Positions 2,351-12,966 of a DNA stretch of 64,000 nt are shown piece by piece (the first letter of the stretch is position 1; the number at the start of each line of letters is the position of its first letter). The notes under the pieces are model-generated. The model saw only the letters and a program-made list of their open reading frames with translations. It ran no database searches and was not told the DNA's origin. Origin of the DNA: Candidatus Iainarchaeum sp. (GTDB taxonomy: Archaea > Iainarchaeota > Iainarchaeia > Iainarchaeales > GCA-2688035). The stretch covers positions 284 to 64,283 of the forward strand of contig JAFCCO010000005.1 in the NCBI GenBank assembly GCA_017610175.1. Reading direction: 5' to 3'. The position numbers and the translations under genes are program-made.

Positions 2351-2491
2351 ATGCCGGTTCCGAGGGGCAAGTCAGCAGCGAGGAATCTAAGAAAGGCATC
2401 AAAGCCTGTTGCAAGCCTTCTCAGGCGCAAGATGAAAAGAAAGTCCGGAAAACTCGGTGAAAAGCACAACGGCAAAAAAACGGAGAAGTGA
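2351..2491 (+). CDS. 46-aa basic hypothetical protein (not in ORF track)
   Basis: MPVPRGKSAARNLRKASKPVASLLRRKMKRKSGKLGEKHNGKKTEK; GGTG upstream; fills the gap before ilvE. Confidence 0.5.
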   Translation: MPVPRGKSAARNLRKASKPVASLLRRKMKRKSGKLGEKHNGKKTEK

Positions 2492-2496
2492 TTCTA

Positions 2497-3411
2497 GTGG
2501 AAGAGGTTGAATGGATTTGGCTTAACGGAGAATTTGTTAAATGGGGTGAGGCAAAGGTTCACGTTTTGACCCACGCACTCCACTATGGTTCGGGTGTGTT
2601 TGAGGGAATCCGATGCTACGACACGCCAAAGGGCTCAGCTGTTTTCAGGCTCAAGGACCACCTCAAAAGGCTTTTCTATTCGGCAGAGGTCATGGGCCTC
2701 AAAATTCCCTACAAGGAAAAGGAACTTTACGACACTACGCTTGAATTAATCAGAAAAAATAAGGTAAAAGAGGCGTATATTCGCCCGATTGTTTTCTTTG
2801 GATACGGCAAAATGGGCCTGAACCCTGTCGGGGCAAAAGTTGACGTTTCAATTTCACTCTGGCCGTGGGGCGCATACCTTGGAGAGGACGGAATTAAGAA
2901 CGGCGTTCGCGTAAAGATTTCACCATGGGTTAGGCCTCCCACAAACGTTATGCCAACCAACGCAAAGGTTAACGGAAATTATGTTAACAGCATTCTCGCA
3001 AAGGTTGACGCAGTCGAAACAGGTTACGAGGATGCAATTCTTCTTGATTCAAAGGGAAACGTTGCCGAGTGCACGGCAGAAAACCTTTTCATTGTAAAGG
3101 ACAACGTTCTCATAACACCCCCGACTGACAACACACTGAAGGGAATTACCCGCGACAGCATAATGAAGATTGCCCTCGACTTTGACATAAAGGTTGAGGA
3201 AAGGTTCTTCAACAAGGACAAGCTCTACGCGGCAGACGAGTGTTTTATGACCGGAACAGCTGCAGAGGTCACCCCAATTCGCGAAGTTGACGGCAATGCA
3301 ATCGGGGAAGGCAAGCCAGGCCCGATAACCAAGAAAGTGCAAAATAAATACTACAAAGCAATCCACGGAAAAGCCCCTGAATACGAAAAATGGCTTGACT
3401 TTGCGGAGTGA
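2497..3411 (+). CDS. ilvE: Branched-chain amino acid aminotransferase
   Basis: HALHYGSGVFEGIR, YIRP, AKVNGNY, L.GITR and GTAAEVTP motifs; GTG start at 2497 (2488 alternative). Confidence 0.96.
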   Translation: MEEVEWIWLNGEFVKWGEAKVHVLTHALHYGSGVFEGIRCYDTPKGSAVFRLKDHLKRLFYSAEVMGLKIPYKEKELYDTTLELIRKNKVKEAYIRPIVFFGYGKMGLNPVGAKVDVSISLWPWGAYLGEDGIKNGVRVKISPWVRPPTNVMPTNAKVNGNYVNSILAKVDAVETGYEDAILLDSKGNVAECTAENLFIVKDNVLITPPTDNTLKGITRDSIMKIALDFDIKVEERFFNKDKLYAADECFMTGTAAEVTPIREVDGNAIGEGKPGPITKKVQNKYYKAIHGKAPEYEKWLDFAE

Positions 3412-3416
3412 ACCAA

Positions 3417-3476
3417 ATGCACATTAGAAAAAGGCTCAAGCGATTTTTGGGGTTTGCAAGAAGAATTAAGCGCTGA
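3417..3476 (+). CDS. Putative 19-aa cationic micro-peptide MHIRKRLKRFLGFARRIKR
   Basis: GGAGTGA RBS-like sequence overlapping the ilvE stop, 5 nt before ATG. Confidence 0.35.
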   Translation: MHIRKRLKRFLGFARRIKR

Positions 3477-3477
3477 G

Positions 3478-3493
3478 AGAAAGCCTTTTAAAT
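3478..3493 (+). promoter_or_regulatory. Archaeal BRE/TATA promoter of the leu leader and leu-ilv operon
   Basis: Purine-rich AGAAAGC followed by TTTTAAAT (3486-3493), about 40 nt before the leader ATG. Confidence 0.6.
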
Positions 3494-3532
3494 CCCTTAA
3501 GCACTATAGATAATAGCAATACAGTGGTATTT

Positions 3533-3619
3533 ATGAAAACAGCAGGTAGTTTTGGAACAAAGTCTACGAATTACTTACTTAGCCTGCTCGTTTTGCTTCT
3601 GGTTTTGCTGTTAGGATAA
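3533..3619 (+). CDS. Leucine/valine-rich leader peptide of the leu-ilv operon (28 aa)
   Basis: MKTAGSFGTKSTNYLLSLLVLLLVLLLG*; 10 Leu and 2 Val in the last 14 codons; ends 77 nt before leuA. Confidence 0.85.
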   Translation: MKTAGSFGTKSTNYLLSLLVLLLVLLLG

Positions 3620-3688
3620 GCACTTCCTAGCTAAAGCAAATTTTGGAAGTGCGGTTTTAAAACTGGAGAAGTCATTAGATTCGAGGTG
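3604..3688 (+). promoter_or_regulatory. Putative attenuator: alternative RNA hairpins downstream of the Leu leader
   Basis: Stem A TTTGCT-GTTAGGA/TCCTAGC-AGCAAA (3604-3640) competes with stem B GCACTTCC/GGAAGTGC (3620-3652), which is followed by GGTTTT; CACTTC can also pair with the leuA RBS GAGGTG (3683-3688). Confidence 0.65.
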
Positions 3689-3696
3689 TTTTGGAA

Positions 3697-5214
3697 ATGA
3701 GAAAAATAAGAGTTTTTGATACAACGCTCAGAGATGGGGAGCAGAGCCCTGGTGCGACTCTTACGCATCGCGAGAAAATAATGATTGCAAGGCAGCTTGA
3801 AAAGCTTGGTGTTGATGTAATCGAGGCGGGTTTTCCTATCGCGAGCGATGACGATTTCAAGGCGGTTAAGGAGATTGCGGAAACCGTTAAGGGGCTGAGC
3901 GTGTGCGGTCTTGCCCGCGCAATGCCAAAGGACATTGACAGGGCCTGGGAGGCCATTCAGAACGCCAAAAAACCAAGGATACACACTTTTATGTCGACAA
4001 GCGACGTGCATTTAAAGCACCAATTCAAAAAAACCAGGGATGAGGCCCTTGAAATGAGTGTTGAGGCTGTAAAACTTGCCTGTTCCTACTGTAAGGATGT
4101 GGAGTTTTCGCCAATGGATGCCACGCGCACCGACCCCAAATTCCTTTTCCAGGTGCTTGAAAAAGTGATTGAAGCCGGTGCGGGGACGGTTAACATTCCT
4201 GACACTGTTGGGTATGCCCAGCCAGTGGAATTCGGCAAGCTCATTAAGAACATTTGCGATAACGTTCCGGGCATTGAGAATGCGGTAGTTAGCGTGCACT
4301 GCCACAACGATTTGGGGCTTGCGGTCGCAAACAGCCTTGAGGCGGTGCGCAACGGCGCCGGCCAGGTTGAGTGCACTGTAAATGGCATTGGCGAGCGTGC
4401 AGGAAATGCGTCCCTTGAAGAAATCGCGATGAACCTGCATACCCGCAGTGAATTTTTTGGGGTCTGCACAAGCATTAACCTTAAGGAAATTTATCCTTCA
4501 TCGCTGATGGTCAGCAACCTTACAGGGATGGCGGTTCAGCGCAACAAGGCAATTGTTGGCAAAAACGCATTTGCGCACGAGGCCGGAATTCACCAGCACG
4601 GTGTTCTTGCAAACTCACAAACTTATGAGATAATGGACCCTGAGATGATTGGCAATAAAAGCCAGTTTGTGCTCGGCAAGCATTCCGGCAAGCACGCAAC
4701 AAAGAAGGTTCTCAAGGACATGGGTTTTGATCTCTCAGACGACGAGCTCAAACAGGTAACCAACAGGATAAAACAGCTTGCAGACAAGCAGAAAACCGTG
4801 CTCGATGAAGACATTGTTGCAATTGCAGGAGATGTCACACAGCAGCTTAAGAAAGAGGAAAAGCGAATTGTTCTTGAGGAATTTCGCATTGAAACAGGCA
4901 ACAAGGTAAAGCCCACTGCAATCCTCAAGCTTATAATCGACGGAAAGAAAGTTGAGGCAAAGGGAACAGGGGTTGGGCCTGTTGACGCAATAACCAACGC
5001 ACTGCAATCAGTTTCACCCACAAAGGTTTCGCTCCACGAATACCACCTCAACGCAATAACAGGCGGAACAGACGCACTTGCGGACGTTGAGGTAAAAATA
5101 GTCAACGGGTCGGGAAAGGTCCACAATGCAGAGGCAATCAATGAGGATGTACTAACGGCAAGCACGAACGCCATCATAAAGGGCATAAACAAGGCGCTTG
5201 CCAACAAAAAGTAG
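3697..5214 (+). CDS. leuA: 2-isopropylmalate synthase
   Basis: DTTLRDGEQSPG, EAGFP, HCHNDLGLA, GIGERAGN and HEAGIHQ motifs, C-terminal regulatory domain; GAGGTG RBS before ATG 3697. Confidence 0.93.
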   Translation: MRKIRVFDTTLRDGEQSPGATLTHREKIMIARQLEKLGVDVIEAGFPIASDDDFKAVKEIAETVKGLSVCGLARAMPKDIDRAWEAIQNAKKPRIHTFMSTSDVHLKHQFKKTRDEALEMSVEAVKLACSYCKDVEFSPMDATRTDPKFLFQVLEKVIEAGAGTVNIPDTVGYAQPVEFGKLIKNICDNVPGIENAVVSVHCHNDLGLAVANSLEAVRNGAGQVECTVNGIGERAGNASLEEIAMNLHTRSEFFGVCTSINLKEIYPSSLMVSNLTGMAVQRNKAIVGKNAFAHEAGIHQHGVLANSQTYEIMDPEMIGNKSQFVLGKHSGKHATKKVLKDMGFDLSDDELKQVTNRIKQLADKQKTVLDEDIVAIAGDVTQQLKKEEKRIVLEEFRIETGNKVKPTAILKLIIDGKKVEAKGTGVGPVDAITNALQSVSPTKVSLHEYHLNAITGGTDALADVEVKIVNGSGKVHNAEAINEDVLTASTNAIIKGINKALANKK

Positions 5215-5223
5215 GTGAATGCA

Positions 5224-6921
5224 ATGCAGGGAAGTGAAGCAATAATAAAAACCCTTATTGAGGAAAAGGCGGAGCACGTGTTCGGTTTTCCGGGCGGAGC
5301 GGTAATGCCAATCTACGACAAGTTTCTTGACTACGAAGATGAGTTAAGGCACATTCTTGTAAGGCACGAGCAGGCGGCGGCGCACGCAGCAGACGGCTAT
5401 GCAAAGATTTCGGGAAAGGCAGGAGTCTGCCTTGCAACCTCCGGGCCAGGGGCAACAAACCTTGTGACCGGCATAATGACCGCTTACATGGATTCGGTTC
5501 CGCTCATTGCACTCGCCGGAAACGTTCCAACTTCGCTTCTTGGAAACGACGCTTTCCAGGAGTCCGACATGATGGGAATCACGATGCCAATTACAAAGCA
5601 CAATTTCCAAATTCGCGACCCGAACACAATCCGCTCAAAGATCAGGAAGGCATTCAAGATTGCACAGCACGGCAGGCCAGGTCCTGTCTATATTGACATT
5701 CCAAAGGACTCGCAGGTAAAGGAGGTAACAAAGGACATTAACAACGTGCTAATTGCAGGATTCAAGCCGGTTCTTAAGGGCCACCCTGTTCAGATAAAAA
5801 AGGCGGCCGAAATGATTCTCAAGGCAGAGTGCCCGGTAATTCTTGCAGGCGGCGGAATTCTTATCTCAAAGGCTTACGCTGAACTTGGCGAGCTTGCGGA
5901 GGGAATGAGCATTCCTGTAACCACCACTTTCATGGGGAAAAGCTGTTTTCCCGAAACACATCCCCTTTGCCTCGGAGTTATTGGGATGCACGGCAGAAAG
6001 GTTGCAAACTACGCAATCGGAAATGCTGATCTAATAATCAATGTTGGCTGCAGGTTCAGTGACAGGATAACGGGTGACCTCAAGACATTTGCAAGTGGCG
6101 CAAAAATAATCCACATAGACATTGACAGCGCCGAAATAGGCAAGAACGTAAAAATCGACCTTCCGATTGTGGGTGATGCAAAGCAGGTTCTTTCCGAGCT
6201 TGTTAAGATCATAAAATTAAAGGCCCCGAAGAGCAGGGGGTGGGCTGAAAAAATCAAGAAATTTATCAAGGACTGCGACTGCGCGATTGACGTGAAGGGA
6301 AGCCCGCTTGATCCCAGAAAAATAATGTTCGAGCTCAACAGAATTCTTGGAAAAGAGGACATTCTTTCAACCGGAACCGGGCAGCACCAGATGTTTGCCA
6401 TGCACTTTGTTAAAAGGGACGTGCCGCACACGTTCATTTCAAGCGGGGGGGCGGGCACAATGGGATACGGTTTTCCCGCGGCAATTGGCGCAAAGGTTGC
6501 AAAGCCGGATGCACAGGTTTTTGACCTTGATGGGGACGGCTCTTTTGCAATGGTTATTCAGGAGCTTGCAACCTGCAAGGAAGAAAATATAAAGGTTATT
6601 CCCGTAATTATGAACAACGCATACCTTGGAATGGTCAGGCAGTGGATGGAGCTATTCGTTGACAAAAGATACAGTGGAGTGCACCTCAAAAGGACCCCTG
6701 ACTTTGCAAAGGTGGCAGAAGCCTACGGGCTTGAGGGAATAACGGTTGAGCGTGACTCAGAGCTTCGCGAGGCGTTTGAACGCGCTTACAAGGCGGACTC
6801 AACGGTCTTAATTGATGTGATTACACAGGAAGAGGCAAACATCCTCCCAATGTTTTCGGCGGGGGCAAACAATGTTGACATGTTTGGTGGATGCATTCAA
6901 AACAAGGGAGAACTGTTTTAG
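5224..6921 (+). CDS. ilvB: Acetolactate synthase large subunit
   Basis: FGFPGG, RHEQAAAHAADGY, TSGPGATN, GQHQM and GDGSF ThDP motifs. Confidence 0.96.
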   Translation: MQGSEAIIKTLIEEKAEHVFGFPGGAVMPIYDKFLDYEDELRHILVRHEQAAAHAADGYAKISGKAGVCLATSGPGATNLVTGIMTAYMDSVPLIALAGNVPTSLLGNDAFQESDMMGITMPITKHNFQIRDPNTIRSKIRKAFKIAQHGRPGPVYIDIPKDSQVKEVTKDINNVLIAGFKPVLKGHPVQIKKAAEMILKAECPVILAGGGILISKAYAELGELAEGMSIPVTTTFMGKSCFPETHPLCLGVIGMHGRKVANYAIGNADLIINVGCRFSDRITGDLKTFASGAKIIHIDIDSAEIGKNVKIDLPIVGDAKQVLSELVKIIKLKAPKSRGWAEKIKKFIKDCDCAIDVKGSPLDPRKIMFELNRILGKEDILSTGTGQHQMFAMHFVKRDVPHTFISSGGAGTMGYGFPAAIGAKVAKPDAQVFDLDGDGSFAMVIQELATCKEENIKVIPVIMNNAYLGMVRQWMELFVDKRYSGVHLKRTPDFAKVAEAYGLEGITVERDSELREAFERAYKADSTVLIDVITQEEANILPMFSAGANNVDMFGGCIQNKGELF

Positions 6922-6934
6922 GGAAGGGGTTTGA

Positions 6935-7447
6935 ATGGATGAATCAAGGGAAATTGGCGGAAAAACAAAGAAACACATAATCGGAATTATGGTTGACGAC
7001 CACCCGGGCGTAATGTCAAAGCTTTCCTCGCTTTTCGCAAGGCGCGGATTCAACATTGACAGCATTGTTGTCGGAAAAAGCGCCCACCCAGGAATGGCAC
7101 ACATTGTGATAAGCGTTGTTGCCAACGACGAAATCATTGAACAGCTTGAAAAACAGGTAAACAAGCTAATTGACGTTGCAAAGATTACAGACCTTGCGCC
7201 AGCGCAAAGCGTGATAAGGGAACACTGCCTTGTGAAAGTGGCCTCAACGGAAAAATCAAGGGAGGACATAATTAACATCGCAAAAATCCACAAGGCAAAG
7301 GTCCTTGACATTAACCACTCAAGCATAATTGTTGAAATAGTCGGCAGGCCAGCCAAAATAGAAAATTTTATTGAGCTAATGGGAAAGTACGGAATTAAGG
7401 AAGTAAGCAGAACAGGAATTAATGCCCTGCAAAGGGGAACAAAATAA
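6935..7447 (+). CDS. ilvH: Acetolactate synthase small (regulatory) subunit
   Basis: PGVMSK..LFARRGFNIDSI ACT domain, KQVNKLIDV and SRTG motifs. Confidence 0.94.
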   Translation: MDESREIGGKTKKHIIGIMVDDHPGVMSKLSSLFARRGFNIDSIVVGKSAHPGMAHIVISVVANDEIIEQLEKQVNKLIDVAKITDLAPAQSVIREHCLVKVASTEKSREDIINIAKIHKAKVLDINHSSIIVEIVGRPAKIENFIELMGKYGIKEVSRTGINALQRGTK

Positions 7448-7512
7448 AAACAGTTATCAGGTAATTCGGTAAGAATTGCCCAACTTCAAATTGCAAACGG
7501 AGGGAGTAAAAC

Positions 7513-8496
7513 ATGAAAATATATCACGAAAACGACGCATCAATCGATGCACTTAAGGACAAAACAATTGCCATAATCGGCTACGGAAACCAGGGAAGGC
7601 CTCAGGCACTGTGCCTCAGGGATTCCGGCTTGAAAGTAATCGTCGGCTCAATAAAGGACGCATCCTTTGACAAGGCCGTTGAAGACGGTTTTGAAACATT
7701 TCCAATAGCGGAAGCCGCGGAAAAAGCGGACCTTGTCCAGATTCTTCTGCCTGACGAGTTCCAGGGAGTGGTTTACGCAAGCGAAATCGCGCCGCACATG
7801 AAGGAAGGCAAGATTCTCTGCTGCTCACACGGCTTTAGCATTGTGTTCAAGGGAATTGTGCCCCCCGAAAACGTTGACGTAATAATGGCAGCACCAAAGA
7901 GCCCGGGCAGCGAGGAAAGAAAGGAATACGTGCGCGGATTCGGAGTGCCGGGCCTCATAGCCGTTTACAAGGACGCAAGCGGAAAGGCAAGGGATTATGC
8001 ACTTGCATACGCAAAAGGAATGGGCTACACAAGAGCAGGGGTAATTGAATGCACGTTTCCCCAGGAAACATACTCGGACCTGTTTGGGGAACAGACAGTT
8101 CTATGCGGCGGAGTAACAGAGCTCATGAGAGCTGGCTTTGAAACACTCACCGAAGCAGGCTACCCGCCTGAAATCGCATACTTTGAATGCATCAACGAGC
8201 TCAAGCTCATCGTGGACATGATTTACGAGGGCGGATTCGAATTGATGTGGAAGCGCGTAAGCAACACCGCAGAATACGGCGGAAGGACACGCGGCCCAAA
8301 GGTAATTGGCAAGGAATCAAAGGAAGCAATGAAGCAGCTTCTCAAAGACATTGAGTCAGGCGCTTTTGCAAAAGAGTGGGTTGACGAGGTCAAAGCAGGA
8401 ATGCCAAACCTCAACAAGCTCCGCGAAGAGCAGGCAAAGGAACCGGTCGAAACAATCGGCAAGGAAATCAGAGCCCTCTTTGAAAAAAAGGAATAA
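7513..8496 (+). CDS. ilvC: Ketol-acid reductoisomerase
   Basis: [31 protein letters not shown] and SNTAEYG motifs. Confidence 0.97.
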
Positions 8497-8503
8497 GCAA
8501 AGC

Positions 8504-10132
8504 ATGAAACCGGATGAAATAAAGCGGCTTCCGGCCGCTGAATCACTGCTTTACGCAGACGGGCTTAAGGAGAACGAGATTGGCAAACCGTTTATTGCGG
8601 TTGCCAACTCATTCAATGAGATAACACCCGGCCACATCCACCTCAACAAGCTTGTTGAGCACGTAAAGCGCGGAATCCGGGAAGTGGGGGCAATTCCCTT
8701 CGAATTCAACACAATTGGGGTGTGCGACGGCATAGCAATGGGGCACGAAGGAATGAAGTACTCTCTTCCAAGCCGTGAAACCATTGCAGACAGCATTGAA
8801 GAAATGGTCAAAGCGCACTCTGTGTTTGAGGGAATTGTTTTCATCGCCGCATGTGACAAGAACATTCCTGGACACCTCAAGGCAGCAGCCAGGCTCAATC
8901 TTCCATCAGTATTTGTTTCAGCAGGGCCAATGGCTCCGGGCGAATACGACGGCAAAAAAATCGGGGTAAAGGCCGCTTTTGAGGCAAAGGCACAGGTTGA
9001 ACTTGGAAAGATTTCAAAGGAAGAATACAAAAAAATTGTATGCAGCGCGTGCCCGGGTGCGGGAACGTGCTCAGGGCTTTATACAGCAAACAGCATGGCT
9101 TGCGTAACCGAAGCATTAGGGCTTTCGCTCCCAATGTGCGCGACCGCAGCCGCACTCTCCGAGGACAAGAACAAAATTGCATACGAAAGCGGAAAACTCA
9201 TAGTTAAACTTGTGAAGCAGGGAATTCTTGCAAGGGACATTATGACCGAGCAGGCTTTTGAAAACGCCCTCCGCCTTGACATGGCAATAGGGGCTTCCAC
9301 AAACACAATGCTTCACGTGCCGGACATTGCAAAAGAGGCGGGCTTTGACTTTAGGCTTGAGCGCATTAATGAACTAAGCGAGGAAACCCCAACCCTTGTG
9401 AAGCTTGATCCTTCATCGGAATTCTTCATGTCCGACCTTCATGAGGCGGGAGGAATTCCGGCGGTAATGGCCGAACTCAAACCAAAGGGCCTTATTCAGG
9501 ACACTGCAACAGTTCAAGGAAGCCTTTTTGACAGGCTTGCAAACGCTGAACTCAAGGACAATAAGGTTATTCGTGCGATTGAAAATCCTTACGACAAAAG
9601 CGGCGGAATTGCAATCCTGTACGGAAACCTTGCGGAACAAGGCTCTGTAATTAAAACAAGCGGAATCTCCCCAAAATTCCCAAAGGTTTTTGAGGGAAAA
9701 GCCGTTGCATTTGATTCAGAGGATGAGGCAAACGAGTTCATCAACTCGGGAAAGGTTGAGAAGGGCTCAGTTCTTGTAATTAGATACGAGGGGCCTGTTG
9801 GAGGCCCGGGAATGCGCGAAATGCTTTACCCAACGGCGGGAATTTCAGGCCTTGGCCTTGACACCAATGTGGCTCTGCTGACAGACGGGAGATTTTCAGG
9901 AGCAACCCACGGCGCTTCAATCGGGCACATTGCGCCTGAAGCGGCAGTTGGCGGAAACATTGCACTGGTTGAAAACGGGGACGCAATCAAAATTGATTTG
10001 GACAAGCGAAGAATAGACCTTCTCGTTGATGAGGCGAAGCTTGCAAAAAGGCGTGAAAAATGGGGCAAGGACTTCAGGCTCAAAGAGCTTCCTGAAGGGG
10101 TTTTAAAGAATTTCCGACAAAGATTTCTATAA
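8504..10132 (+). CDS. ilvD: Dihydroxy-acid dehydratase
   Basis: [34 protein letters not shown] and TDGRFSG motifs; true ATG at 8504. Confidence 0.96.
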
Positions 10133-10142
10133 GGTGAATCAA

Positions 10143-11405
10143 ATGAAACAGACAATAACCGAGAAGATTCTTGCCGCACACTGTGGCAGAGACAGCGTAA
10201 GCCCAGGCGAGCTCATAGAGGCAAACGTAGACCTCTGCTTTGCAAACGATATCACAGCCCCAATTTCAATAAAGGCATTCAGGGAAGCGGGCATTAAAGA
10301 GGTCTTTGACAAGGAAAAAGTTCTCCTGATTCCCGACCATTTCACCCCAAACAAGGACATTAAGGCAGCAGAGCAGGTTAAATTGATGCGCGAGTTTGCA
10401 AAGGAGCAGGAACTTGCAAACTTCTTTGATGTGGGCAGGGTTGGAATCGAACACGTTTTCATCCACGAACAGGGTTTCTCCGTTCCAGGGCAGGTAATTG
10501 TTGGGGCGGACTCACACACATGCACTTACGGAGCACTCGGAGCATTCTCAACAGGAGTTGGCTCAACAGATGTTGCTGCGGCAATGGCCCTTGGAAAGCT
10601 CTGGCTTAAGGTTCCGGAGTCAATGCAGTTCAATTACACAGGAAAGCTCTCAAAATATGTTTCAGGAAAGGACCTTATTCTCTTCACCATCGGCCAGATG
10701 GGGGTGGGCGGTGCGCTCTACAATGCAATGGAGTTCAGGGGCTCCACAATCAGGTCCCTTTCAATGGACAGCAGGTTCAGCATGTGCAATATGGCAATTG
10801 AGGCCGGTGCAAAGAACGGAATAATTGAACCGGACGGCCGCACGCTTTCATATGTTAAGCAGCACTCCAAAAAGAAGTTCAAAACCTACAAGTCTGACAA
10901 GGGCGCAAACTACAGCGACGAGTTTTTCTGGGACGCGTCAGTCATTGAGCCACAGGTGGCGTACCCGCACCTTCCTGAGAACACAAAACCAGTTTCAGAG
11001 GCTTCAGGAATTGAAATTCAGCAAAGTGTAATTGGAAGCTGCACAAACGGGCGAATTGAGGACATGCGCGTTGCCGCAAAAATATTCAAGGGAAAGAAGC
11101 TTGCACCCGGAACAAGGTGTGTAATCCTTCCGGGTTCACAGGAAGTTTATCTTGATTGCATAAAAAAGGGGTTTGTGGAGATATTTGTCAAGGCAGGCTG
11201 TTCCTTTTCAACCCCGACCTGCGGGCCATGCCTTGGAGGGCACATGGGTGTTCTTGCGGCTGGAGAAAAGGCAATCAGCACCACAAACAGAAACTTTGTG
11301 GGCCGAATGGGCCACGTAAAGAGCGAAGTTTATCTCTCCAACCCGGCTGTTGCGGCAGCTTCCGCAATTGCGGGAAAGATAGTGCACCCGGAGGAAATAA
11401 AATGA
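10143..11405 (+). CDS. leuC: 3-isopropylmalate dehydratase large subunit
   Basis: [25 protein letters not shown] and STTNRNF motifs. Confidence 0.95.
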
Positions 11406-11896
11406 AGCTCAAGGGAAAAGCATGGTCGTTTAAGGACAACATTGACACAGATGTAATTATTCCCGCAAGGCACCTGGTCACATCAGACCCTGACGAGCTT
11501 GCAGGGTATTGTATGGAGGACATAGATCCGGACTTTGCAAAGAAAATTTCCAAAGGGGACATTATTGTTGCAGGAAAGAATTTTGGATGCGGTTCAAGCA
11601 GGGAACACGCCCCTATTGCAATAAAGCACTTGGGCATTTCATGCGTTATCGCGGAATCTTTTGCAAGAATCTTCTACAGAAACAGCATAAACATGGGCCT
11701 TCCAATTTTTGAGTGTCCCGAAGCCGTTAAGAAAATAAGGGCAGGGGACAAGCTTGAGGTTGATGCCGAAACAGGGATTATCACAAACGTTTCAAAAAAC
11801 GAAACTTACAAGGCACAGGCAATGCCTGAGTTCATAAGAAAAATTATAAAACTTGGCGGTCTAATGGAGTACGTAAAGCAGGAAGTGAAAAAATAA
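11402..11896 (+). CDS. leuD: 3-isopropylmalate dehydratase small subunit
   Basis: [19 protein letters not shown] and FARIFYRN motifs; ATGA overlap with leuC. Confidence 0.95.
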
Positions 11897-12966
11897 TGGC
11901 CAAGAAATTTAAGATAGCGGTTCTTCCGGGTGACGGAATCGGCGCAGAGATAATGCCTCCCGCAGTTGAGGTTCTCAAAAAAGTTGGCGAAATGTTTTCG
12001 GTTGAGTTTGAATTCACCGAAGCAAAGATTGGATGGGCTGCTTACCCTGAATTTAAGACATGCCTGCCCAAAGAGACACTTGATGTTTGCAAAAACTCGG
12101 ACGTAATCCTTTTTGGGGCAATTGGGGATCCAAAAGCGGACAAGCTTCCGCCGGAGGAAAGGCCTGAGCGGGCGGCGCTTCTCCCCCTTAGAAAGGAGTT
12201 TGACCTTTACGCAAACCTTCGCCCTGCGATGGTGTTCAAATCACTTGCAAATGCATCCCCGCTCAAATCCGAAATAATTGGCGAGGGCTTTGATGTGCTT
12301 GTGGTGCGCGAGCTCACAAGCGGAATTTACTTTGGAGAACCAAAGCAGCTTTCGGAAAGTGAGGGCTTTGATACCATGCGTTACAAAAAAGAGGAAGTTG
12401 AGCGAATTGCAAAGGTTGCTTTCGAAGCCGCAATGAAGCGTTCAAAAAAAGTGCACAGCATTGACAAGTCCAACGTTCTCCAGTCAATGGTCCTTTGGAG
12501 GGAAACTGTCGGAAGCGTTGCAAAGAATTATCCTAAAGTGGAGCTTGAAAACCTTTACGTTGACAATGCGGCAATGCAGCTTGTCAAAAACCCAAAGCAG
12601 TTTGATGTGATTCTTGCGGGAAACCTGTTTGGGGACATCCTTAGCGACGAGGCCGCAATGCTCACCGGAAGCATTGGCATGCTCCCGTCGGCTTCACTCA
12701 ACGAATCAGGCTTTGGCCTTTACGAGCCTGTTCACGGTTCTGCGCCCGATATTGCTGGAAAGAACATTGCAAACCCGATTGCGCAAATTCTTTCAGCCGC
12801 AATGTTATGCAAGTACTCTTTCGGCCTTAACGAGGCGCATGACGCAATCTTTAAGGCGGTTGAATCGGTTCTTGACAAGGGCATTAGAACAGTGGACATA
12901 GCTGCGGGCAATGAGTCTGTTGGAACAAAGGAAATGGGCCAGGCAATTCTCAAAGAATTAGGTTGA
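11896..12966 (+). CDS. leuB: 3-isopropylmalate dehydrogenase
   Basis: PGDGIG, LYANLRP, DKSNVL, NLFGDILSD and EPVHGSAPDIAG motifs. Confidence 0.96.
   Translation: MAKKFKIAVLPGDGIGAEIMPPAVEVLKKVGEMFSVEFEFTEAKIGWAAYPEFKTCLPKETLDVCKNSDVILFGAIGDPKADKLPPEERPERAALLPLRKEFDLYANLRPAMVFKSLANASPLKSEIIGEGFDVLVVRELTSGIYFGEPKQLSESEGFDTMRYKKEEVERIAKVAFEAAMKRSKKVHSIDKSNVLQSMVLWRETVGSVAKNYPKVELENLYVDNAAMQLVKNPKQFDVILAGNLFGDILSDEAAMLTGSIGMLPSASLNESGFGLYEPVHGSAPDIAGKNIANPIAQILSAAMLCKYSFGLNEAHDAIFKAVESVLDKGIRTVDIAAGNESVGTKEMGQAILKELG

Follow-up and report, generated by a model that had tools for sequence, protein, structure and literature searches.

A probable Leu/Val leader peptide and a predicted RNA switch in front of the leuA-ilvBHCD-leuCDB operon of a DPANN archaeon

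Leader-peptide attenuation is the textbook case of coupled transcription-translation regulation and has been regarded as a bacterial invention, as exemplified by the leuL/leu, trpL/trp, hisL/his, ilvGMEDA and ilvBN systems of Escherichia coli and by the three-hairpin attenuator of ilvBNC in Corynebacterium. Archaea also couple transcription and translation, with a eukaryote-like RNA polymerase, without Rho and with oligo-T tracts as terminators. The present work concerns a 64,000-nucleotide (nt) stretch of DNA from Candidatus Iainarchaeum sp. (contig JAFCCO010000005.1 of assembly GCA_017610175.1, positions 284 to 64,283 of the forward strand; the whole stretch is here called the window), in which a 28-codon open reading frame (ORF) that ends in a run of Leu and Val codons stands in front of a leuA-ilvBHCD-leuCDB operon. 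We consider it probable that this mini-ORF is a cis-acting leader peptide gene reporting the supply of charged tRNA-Leu and tRNA-Val to that operon; its position, its conservation and a composition that tracks operon content all support the Leu/Val leader peptide that an earlier, sequence-only reading of the window had proposed at this place.

Resemblance to the bacterial attenuators lies in the short ORF just 5' of the operon and rich in codons for its end products, in the mixture of Leu and Val where the operon encodes both pathways, in the overlap of the ORF end with mutually exclusive helices, in a hairpin and then a U-run before the first gene, and in conservation by position and not by sequence. 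On the other hand, the leader belongs to an archaeon, in which the promoter is of the TATA type, the polymerase eukaryote-like and Rho absent, it matches neither Leu_leader nor any other Rfam family, its regulatory run is 10-13 codons long (compared with four Leu in E. coli leuL) and ends no more than 1-2 codons short of the stop, only 0-3 nt separate the stop codon from the hairpin, so that a terminating ribosome covers it, and U-runs are short or missing in many relatives. A ribosome at the end of a leader ORF also decides the state of a downstream RNA element in pyrBI and tnaC/tna of E. coli and in ermC; those systems sense UTP, free Trp and an antibiotic, whereas tRNA charging is proposed here, and unlike in them no masking of the leuA ribosome-binding site is predicted.

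The passages drawn upon from PMC10219788 describe translational attenuation of the ermC type and state, in general terms only, that upstream ORFs act in archaea too. Archaeal polymerases terminate at oligo-T, and FttA (aCPSF1) acts on U-rich nascent RNA (PMC13675443, PMC13681488), to which the T-runs after the leader hairpins described below bear a likeness; the passages concerned deal with constitutive termination at gene ends and with polarity, and contain no conditional, translation-controlled terminator in a 5' leader. A literature search found no archaeal amino-acid leader peptide or ribosome-mediated attenuator, with most subscription journals and supplements lying outside that search and an earlier description being possible. 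With less assurance than for the function of the mini-ORF itself, we lean towards viewing the element as the first recognisable ribosome-mediated amino-acid attenuator in Archaea, consisting of a Leu or Leu/Val leader peptide and an RNA switch, ancestral or repeatedly rebuilt in an order of DPANN archaea and found in one or more lineages beyond the phylum as well.

If this is true, transcription-translation coupling would serve gene-specific regulation in archaea, and archaeal termination, at short T-runs or dependent on FttA, could be gated by hairpins in the nascent RNA. Interest is raised by the archaeal host and by the near-universal presence of the leader before leuA across the order, in which some DPANN archaea, usually viewed as metabolically dependent, make branched-chain amino acids and appear to regulate this by end product. 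With about 180 nt and dozens of natural variants, the leader is a compact and conserved natural test case, in which a possible response of archaeal RNA polymerase or of FttA to conditional hairpins could be probed.

The mini-ORF, its conservation and its composition

3533-3619, forward strand: leader mini-ORF, with ATG at 3533, 28 codons and then TAA (3617-3619); homologous ORFs occur in relatives
3575-3613, forward strand: regulatory run, codons 15-27, with 10 Leu, 2 Val and 1 Ser

All 10 Leu and both Val codons of the mini-ORF lie within its final 14 codons and Ile is absent; CTG is used three times, TTA, CTT and TTG twice each and CTC once, which makes five of the six Leu codon types, and both Val codons are GTT, as re-derived here from the window in agreement with the earlier codon list. 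The mini-ORF is separated from leuA by 77 nt. The genome that carries the window (G000; 1.24 Mb in 34 contigs, 90% complete, 44.8% G+C) contains, in six frames, 22,425 ORFs of 12-60 amino acids (aa), among which the mini-ORF alone has 12 Leu plus Val in 13 residues and only three reach 10 Leu. The absence of Ile had been linked to the lack of ilvA: the absence stands, and the link is only weakly testable, the Thr_dehydrat_C domain having no match in this 90%-complete genome.

The phylum was sampled with 215 species genomes, 196 of them in the same order, and a LeuA-like gene (defined at E <= 1e-100) was found in 48 of these 196. A comparable mini-ORF precedes this gene in 46 of the 48 genomes, spanning ten families. 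The rule applied called for an ORF of 8-60 codons, no more than 450 nt upstream, with at least seven Leu, Val or Ile in some 10-residue window; it was passed by 28 of the 30 loci of a first batch, where the ORF ends 77-228 nt before leuA, and by 15 of the 18 remaining loci. The leader of G175 is a twenty-ninth, found under a slightly different rule, and G156 and G134 carry the same kind of ORF with 6 of 10 residues, below the threshold and spotted by eye. In the other two genomes (G026 and G049, family f5) no leader stands before leuA and ilvE directly precedes it instead; in G026 a mini-ORF rich in Leu lies some 410 nt 5' of ilvE.

Between families the leader peptides show little sequence identity and their N-terminal part is not conserved, their common feature being a Leu or Leu/Val run at the C-terminus, with its end 1-2 codons before the stop. 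Searching with the intergenic DNA revealed three relatives that keep the 3' end of the ORF and the next 70 nt. A covariance model built from ten leaders of the family gave one match each, directly upstream of leuA, in the 10 of 10 family genomes with a leuA-like gene, and none in the 13 family genomes without one. Since the ten matches are the training sequences, the informative part of this result is the absence of further copies, and the statement that the element occurs nowhere else rests on these 23 family genomes and on the ORF scan of its own genome. Homologues away from leu and ilv genes, which under the sequence-only reading would have spoken against a leader peptide, were thus not found in that range.

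The make-up of the leader follows the content of the operon, and this is the strongest functional evidence. At least two Val among the last 12 residues go together with ilvB in the operon in 23 of 23 leaders, whereas ilvB is in the operon of none of the 17 Leu-only leaders (at most one Val in the last 12; 3-9 kb fetched downstream). Where ilvB comes directly after leuA (20 loci), Val numbers 2-4 (mean 3.0) and Leu averages 6.4 among the last 12 residues, compared with 0-1 Val (mean 0.29) and a mean of 7.6 Leu at the seven loci where ilvB does not directly follow; the second batch brought one further locus with adjacent ilvB, with 2 Val. Two apparent exceptions, G128 and G139, have 2-3 Val and no adjacent ilvB, and longer sequence placed leuA-like, leuB-like, leuC, leuD, ilvB, ilvH, ilvC and ilvD genes in their operons. 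Leu-only leaders precede leuA followed by leuC-leuD-leuB, ilvE, a Glu/Leu/Phe/Val (ELFV) dehydrogenase gene, leuS or unrelated genes. The loci in this tally, from which G106, G110, G140 and G145 were left out on account of contig ends, are not independent, being related by kinship; the contrast is seen again, however, inside family f1, inside genus g58 (family f11) and between other families. The locus L018, which apparently lies outside the phylum and is identical to L049, combines 3 Val with leuA-ilvB. Free replacement of Leu by Ile, Phe or Met is not seen, in line with what a leader peptide had been expected to look like: the tails consist of Leu or of Leu and Val, with Ile at 0-2 of the last 12 residues. 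The occurrence of Val only where ilv genes are present provides a rule for finding further archaeal leaders.

G000 has two TBP genes and no match to sigma-70 region 2, control genomes having given the expected results in both searches, and the host is an archaeon, DPANN and Iainarchaeum-like; the likeness to bacterial leaders drawn in the sequence-only reading therefore holds as an analogy only. The closest named relatives of its LeuA come from metagenome-assembled genomes (MAGs) labelled 'uncultured archaeon' (75% identity) and Candidatus Iainarchaeum (67%), with further close relatives in MAGs bearing the labels Micrarchaeota and Woesearchaeota. Among bacteria, the LeuA proteins most like it come from deltaproteobacteria: identity is about 55% for the nearest, from Syntrophorhabdus and others, and about 50-56% when Desulfobacteraceae are included, a closeness that hints at an old inter-domain transfer of leuA. 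Among the 25 bacterial loci with the closest LeuA, 24 have no leader ORF and one has weak matches only, more than 500 nt upstream.

A predicted switch between two hairpins

3595-3650, forward strand: extended hairpin A, in which the last eight codons (3595-3616) pair with 3625-3650 and the stop codon lies in the loop
3620-3652, forward strand: hairpin B, with its 5' arm GCACTTCC (3620-3627) right after the stop codon and its 3' arm GGAAGTGC at 3645-3652
3641-3644, forward strand: T-run 1 (TTTT), in the loop of B and right after the inner hairpin A (3604-3640)
3655-3658, forward strand: T-run 2 (TTTT), a candidate premature termination site, 2 nt past the common 3' end of B and extended A
3667-3678, forward strand: conserved motif AGAAGTC-A-TTAG, shared by families f1, f6, f25 and f29 downstream of hairpin B; f26 has a variant

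The core of hairpin A pairs 3610-3616 with 3625-3631. The extended form folds at -21.0 kcal/mol (z -3.04; 2 of 200 shuffles fold as well) and the inner form at -13.3 kcal/mol (z -3.12), while hairpin B folds at -11.4 kcal/mol (z -2.77; 1 of 200 shuffles). Both hairpins use 3625-3627 and are thus mutually exclusive; on a common RNA, A stands at -21.1 kcal/mol and B at -15.4 kcal/mol. The core of helix A is 97% paired in the 10 sequences of family f1 (24-55% in slid controls) and is supported by an RNAalifold consensus; it shows two double-sided changes, both in G018, and its covariation score was reached by 53 of 500 shuffles. The double compensatory change in G018 converts the last sense codon from Gly to Glu, so that pairing is kept while the residue changes. 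In families f25 and f29 helix B has a paired fraction of 84% and three double-sided changes, with lower values in slid controls and a covariation score reached by only 6 of 500 shuffles; support for B was drawn from this alignment and from single-sequence folds. Other families have an alternative pairing of their own between the ORF end and the 5' arm of the hairpin. Among 28 leaders, a hairpin of at least 5 pairs begins no more than 3 nt from the stop in 24 and z lies below -2 in 23; a run of four or more T lies inside the B loop in 12, and U4-U7 directly follows the hairpin in many leaders of family f11.

The AGAAGTC-N-TTAG motif recurs 15-25 nt after hairpin B in leaders that otherwise differ (loci L087, L091-L099 and L104). 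In families f25 and f29 it is complementary to a CGGCTTCTG stretch in the B loop, and this 'helix C' is 88% paired, compared with 30-46% in slid controls, with no double-sided changes there, which is compatible with pairing and does not demonstrate it. Helix C is a possible third helix, of the classical 3:4 kind, or might combine with B into an H-type pseudoknot whose first loop is U-rich and whose third is A-rich.

The influence of a translating ribosome was modelled by masking a 30-nt footprint and computing pair probabilities (P) for RNA ending at 3660 or at the leuA ATG:

No ribosome: P(A) 0.92-0.99, P(B) 0.01-0.08
A-site on codons 15-19 (first Leu codons): P(A) 0.19-0.94, P(B) 0.05-0.81
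A-site on codons 20-25: P(A) 0.06 or less, P(B) 0.94-1.00
A-site on codon 26 (intermediate): P(A) 0.00, P(B) 0.14-0.57
A-site on codons 27-29 (last Leu, Gly, stop): P(A) 0.00, P(B) about 0

The same model, applied to the 35 of 43 leaders that could be scored, gave a median P(B) of 0.83-0.90 for A-site positions 4-7 codons short of the stop; the median was 0.41 three codons short of it and 0.00-0.01 on the last two codons and on the stop itself. The values without a ribosome were set aside in this survey, as they depend on the assumed 5' end. The Shine-Dalgarno (SD) sequence of leuA has a modelled unpaired probability of 0.50-0.69 in every ribosome state and is thus equally open throughout, so that masking of the leuA ribosome-binding site is unsupported.

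The following signals would serve the transcription and translation of the leader and of leuA:

3486-3493, forward strand: TATA-like box TTTTAAAT, read from the sequence some 40 nt 5' of the mini-ORF start, a putative archaeal promoter for the leader transcript
3523-3528, forward strand: candidate weak SD-like AGTGGT, 4 nt 5' of the ATG, likewise read from the sequence
3683-3699, forward strand: leuA SD GAGGTG (3683-3688) and ATG (3697-3699), from sequence and Pfam

A TTTAAA-type box is present at a similar distance in leaders of the same family, in which an AGTG/GGTG-type motif 5-9 nt before the start and the ATG itself are also kept. In the mechanism that we favour, the transcript would begin about 15 nt before the mini-ORF, which a ribosome would translate, and its speed across the 13-codon Leu/Val run would select between two exclusive RNA structures around the two short T-runs. 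With the run free of a ribosome, the long hairpin A would form from the last codons and 30 nt past the stop; a ribosome stalled 4-9 codons short of the stop would melt A and allow B to form; and one standing on the stop or the last codons would prevent both. The state of the RNA would then set the number of polymerases that continue into leuA, that is, it would act as an attenuator, the output probably being that transcription stops prematurely at the T-runs, by intrinsic termination or through FttA/aCPSF1.

The sensor part of this proposal is well supported, and the output part is not. We infer both the translation of the mini-ORF and termination as the output. That starvation raises read-through and turns the operon on would follow from the logic of biosynthetic operons and not from the structures themselves, and it is on such biological grounds that B, the stall-specific hairpin, is favoured as the presumed 'on' state.

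Counter-evidence and rival explanations

Several observations weigh against the proposed attenuator. Hairpins A and B end at the same 3' boundary beside T-run 2, so that a plain hairpin-plus-U reading predicts termination unless a ribosome stands at the ORF end, and hence the opposite sign, with read-through when Leu is plentiful. Four T are short for an archaeal intrinsic terminator, and a run of four or more T within 10 nt after B occurs in only 11 of 28 leaders, mostly in family f1. In free RNA the balance of the two hairpins shifts with the assumed 5' end: A has P >= 0.90 from 3517 onward, and B wins if the transcript begins at 3509. On the family alignment helix B does no better than controls, a count that fails because MAFFT sets its 5' arm one column out of register in about half of the rows, and helix A is not evident in family f25. 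Resampling of synonymous codons gave weak support for A (3 of 28 at p <= 0.05, median p 0.21), a result that was set aside since the segment used cut the 3' arm of A. One relative, G011, has TTG as its only start, placed too near its SD. Leaders for other amino acids appeared in G000 only as noise, the three most suggestive runs (Ile/Thr, Phe and His) all lying elsewhere than upstream of biosynthetic genes. Finally, the diversity of Leu codons, which the sequence-only reading had taken as a sign that several isoacceptors are sampled, is what chance would give. CTT is the commonest Leu codon genome-wide, as had been judged by eye (39% of the Leu codons counted over 855 proxy genes), draws of ten Leu codons at genome usage contain at least five kinds in 47.5% of cases (P = 0.475) and the counts in the mini-ORF fit that usage (simulated chi-square p = 0.485); an argument for the leader from codon diversity or rare codons was accordingly rejected.

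A first alternative, which we regard as doubtful though worth weighing, keeps the same sensor and gives it another output or sign: completed translation of the leader would let the polymerase pass, or the switch would govern mRNA processing or stability, or access of FttA. Occlusion by a ribosome of a hairpin beside a T-run is known from systems of the pyrBI or tna type, and the geometry here would suit it, with at most 3 nt between the stop and the 5' arm of the hairpin in 24 of 28 leaders, the Leu/Val run reaching to within 1-2 codons of the stop, a modelled P(B) that drops to about 0 only when the A-site occupies the stop or one of the last two codons, and a 3' strand beside T-run 2 common to A and B. 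Also in favour of this alternative are the lack of a T-run after B in 17 of 28 leaders, the conserved downstream motif and the possible helix C or pseudoknot. If fast translation were needed for read-through, however, Leu starvation would switch Leu synthesis off, which would be maladaptive, and the long run of hungry codons upstream would stop a starved ribosome from reaching the last codons at all.

It is improbable, in our view, that the unit works as RNA only, that is, as a structured leader whose ligand is a protein, a metabolite or a tRNA, with the ORF as a by-product of a pyrimidine-rich strand. Such a unit would account for the nucleotide-level conservation of the ORF 3' end, which pairs in helix A, for the downstream motif without a coding role, and for the U-rich loop, A-rich loop and helix C that could make an H-type pseudoknot in families f25 and f29; it does not account for a start codon, an SD-like motif, a frame and a stop position that are kept across ten families while the nucleotide sequence is not, nor for a choice between Leu and Leu plus Val that follows operon content. 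Rfam gave no match at gathering score across the whole window and none at E <= 10 in 3440-3720, Leu_leader, T-box and riboswitches included, and identities of these kinds are therefore unsupported.

Still less credible is a small hydrophobic membrane or tail-anchored peptide acting in trans. The C-terminal stretch is indeed hydrophobic (Kyte-Doolittle (KD) mean 3.51 over 13 residues), and the peptide of the relative G012 has about 20 consecutive hydrophobic residues. In several relatives, however, the hydrophobic part consists of 5-8 pure Leu after a polar N-terminal part, and five or six, or eight, Leu cannot span a membrane; with a run of 13-14 residues here and 5-6 Leu in relatives, no span of about 18-20 residues of mixed hydrophobic composition in a conserved protein was found. 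Native hydrophobic segments also look different: in 330 non-overlapping 13-residue windows with a KD mean of at least 2.8 from 855 proxy proteins, Leu plus Val peaks at 5-6, reaches 10 in two windows and never 11, with 20% Ile, 14% Ala and 10.5% Phe, whereas the leader run has 12 of 13 Leu plus Val and none of those three residues. The sequence-only reading had already judged the run poor for a transmembrane helix from its shortness and lack of flanking charge. Moreover, the last residue varies together with its RNA partner, the ORF was not found away from leuA by the covariance model in the 23 family genomes, and a 28-residue chain is still inside the ribosome tunnel at termination.

That the mini-ORF is a chance ORF without function is scarcely conceivable: small ORFs are plentiful (22,425 in G000), but its composition is unique among them, its counterparts stand at the same place in 46 of 48 genomes and their composition co-varies with operon content.

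Neighbouring genes and further observations

2488-3411, forward strand: ilvE (class IV aminotransferase), upstream neighbour; Pfam
3697-12966, forward strand: operon leuA-ilvBHCD-leuCDB; Pfam and ORF list, the genes below by Pfam
3697-5214, forward strand: leuA
5215-6921, forward strand: ilvB
6935-7447, forward strand: ilvH
7513-8496, forward strand: ilvC
ending at 10132, forward strand: ilvD
10134-11405, forward strand: leuC
ending at 11896, forward strand: leuD
11896-12966, forward strand: leuB

The TATA-like box sits between ilvE and the mini-ORF, and ilvE is probably a transcription unit separate from it. The longest ORF of ilvD (TTG, 8351) overlaps the end of ilvC at 8496 by about 145 nt (region 8351-8496), and the true start of ilvD probably lies further downstream. 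A consensus scan found no terminator, with loops of 3-8 nt allowed and hairpin B thereby excluded, and archaeal terminators obey other rules; sigma-70-like promoter matches from a consensus scan are irrelevant, the host being archaeal.

No tRNA genes were found within the window. In G000 as a whole, ARAGORN found 40 tRNA genes, only two of them for tRNA-Leu (anticodons CAG and GAG); isoacceptors for TTA/TTG and CTA were not found by it in this 90%-complete assembly.

G000 also encodes two distant LeuA paralogues, at G000:C33:61116-62609 (reverse strand) and G000:C5:60180-61229 (forward strand), with 29% and 35% identity. They are candidates for citramalate or homocitrate synthase and might serve the Ile branch; no biased leader ORF was found upstream of either.

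In two relatives, one in-frame TAA lies within the leuA-like match (G175:C46:30084-31244 and G032:C2:110677-111828), which could reflect a pseudogene, a sequencing error or recoding. At four loci (L082 in G010, L084 in G006, L083 in G009 and L080 in G012) an A-rich spacer of 90-230 nt extends from the leader hairpins to leuA and is open in the leuA frame, giving an open frame of up to 552 aa compared with 505 aligned; it may encode a Lys-rich N-terminal extension of LeuA or be merely a stop-poor spacer.

A metagenome scan with LeuA brought no new leader types, L049 being identical to L018 and the peptide of L071-L073 being that of L042. These last loci (L042 and L071-L073), labelled Woesearchaeota and outside the phylum, have a 20-codon ORF with an 8-bp hairpin after it, 47 nt before a short LeuA-like gene; the last 12 residues hold 5 Leu, 4 Ile and no Val, and the ORF, which lies in an AT-rich genome, may apply the same principle to Ile and Leu. 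Leu-only leaders also stand before short LeuA-like genes (about 385-400 aa, with the C-terminal LeuA_dimer regulatory part absent) at L101/L132 (G018), L102/L133 (G011) and L106/L145 (G175). The next gene is of the Glu/Leu/Phe/Val-dehydrogenase family in G018 and G011 and encodes leucyl-tRNA synthetase in G175, which makes for unusual Leu-related pairs.

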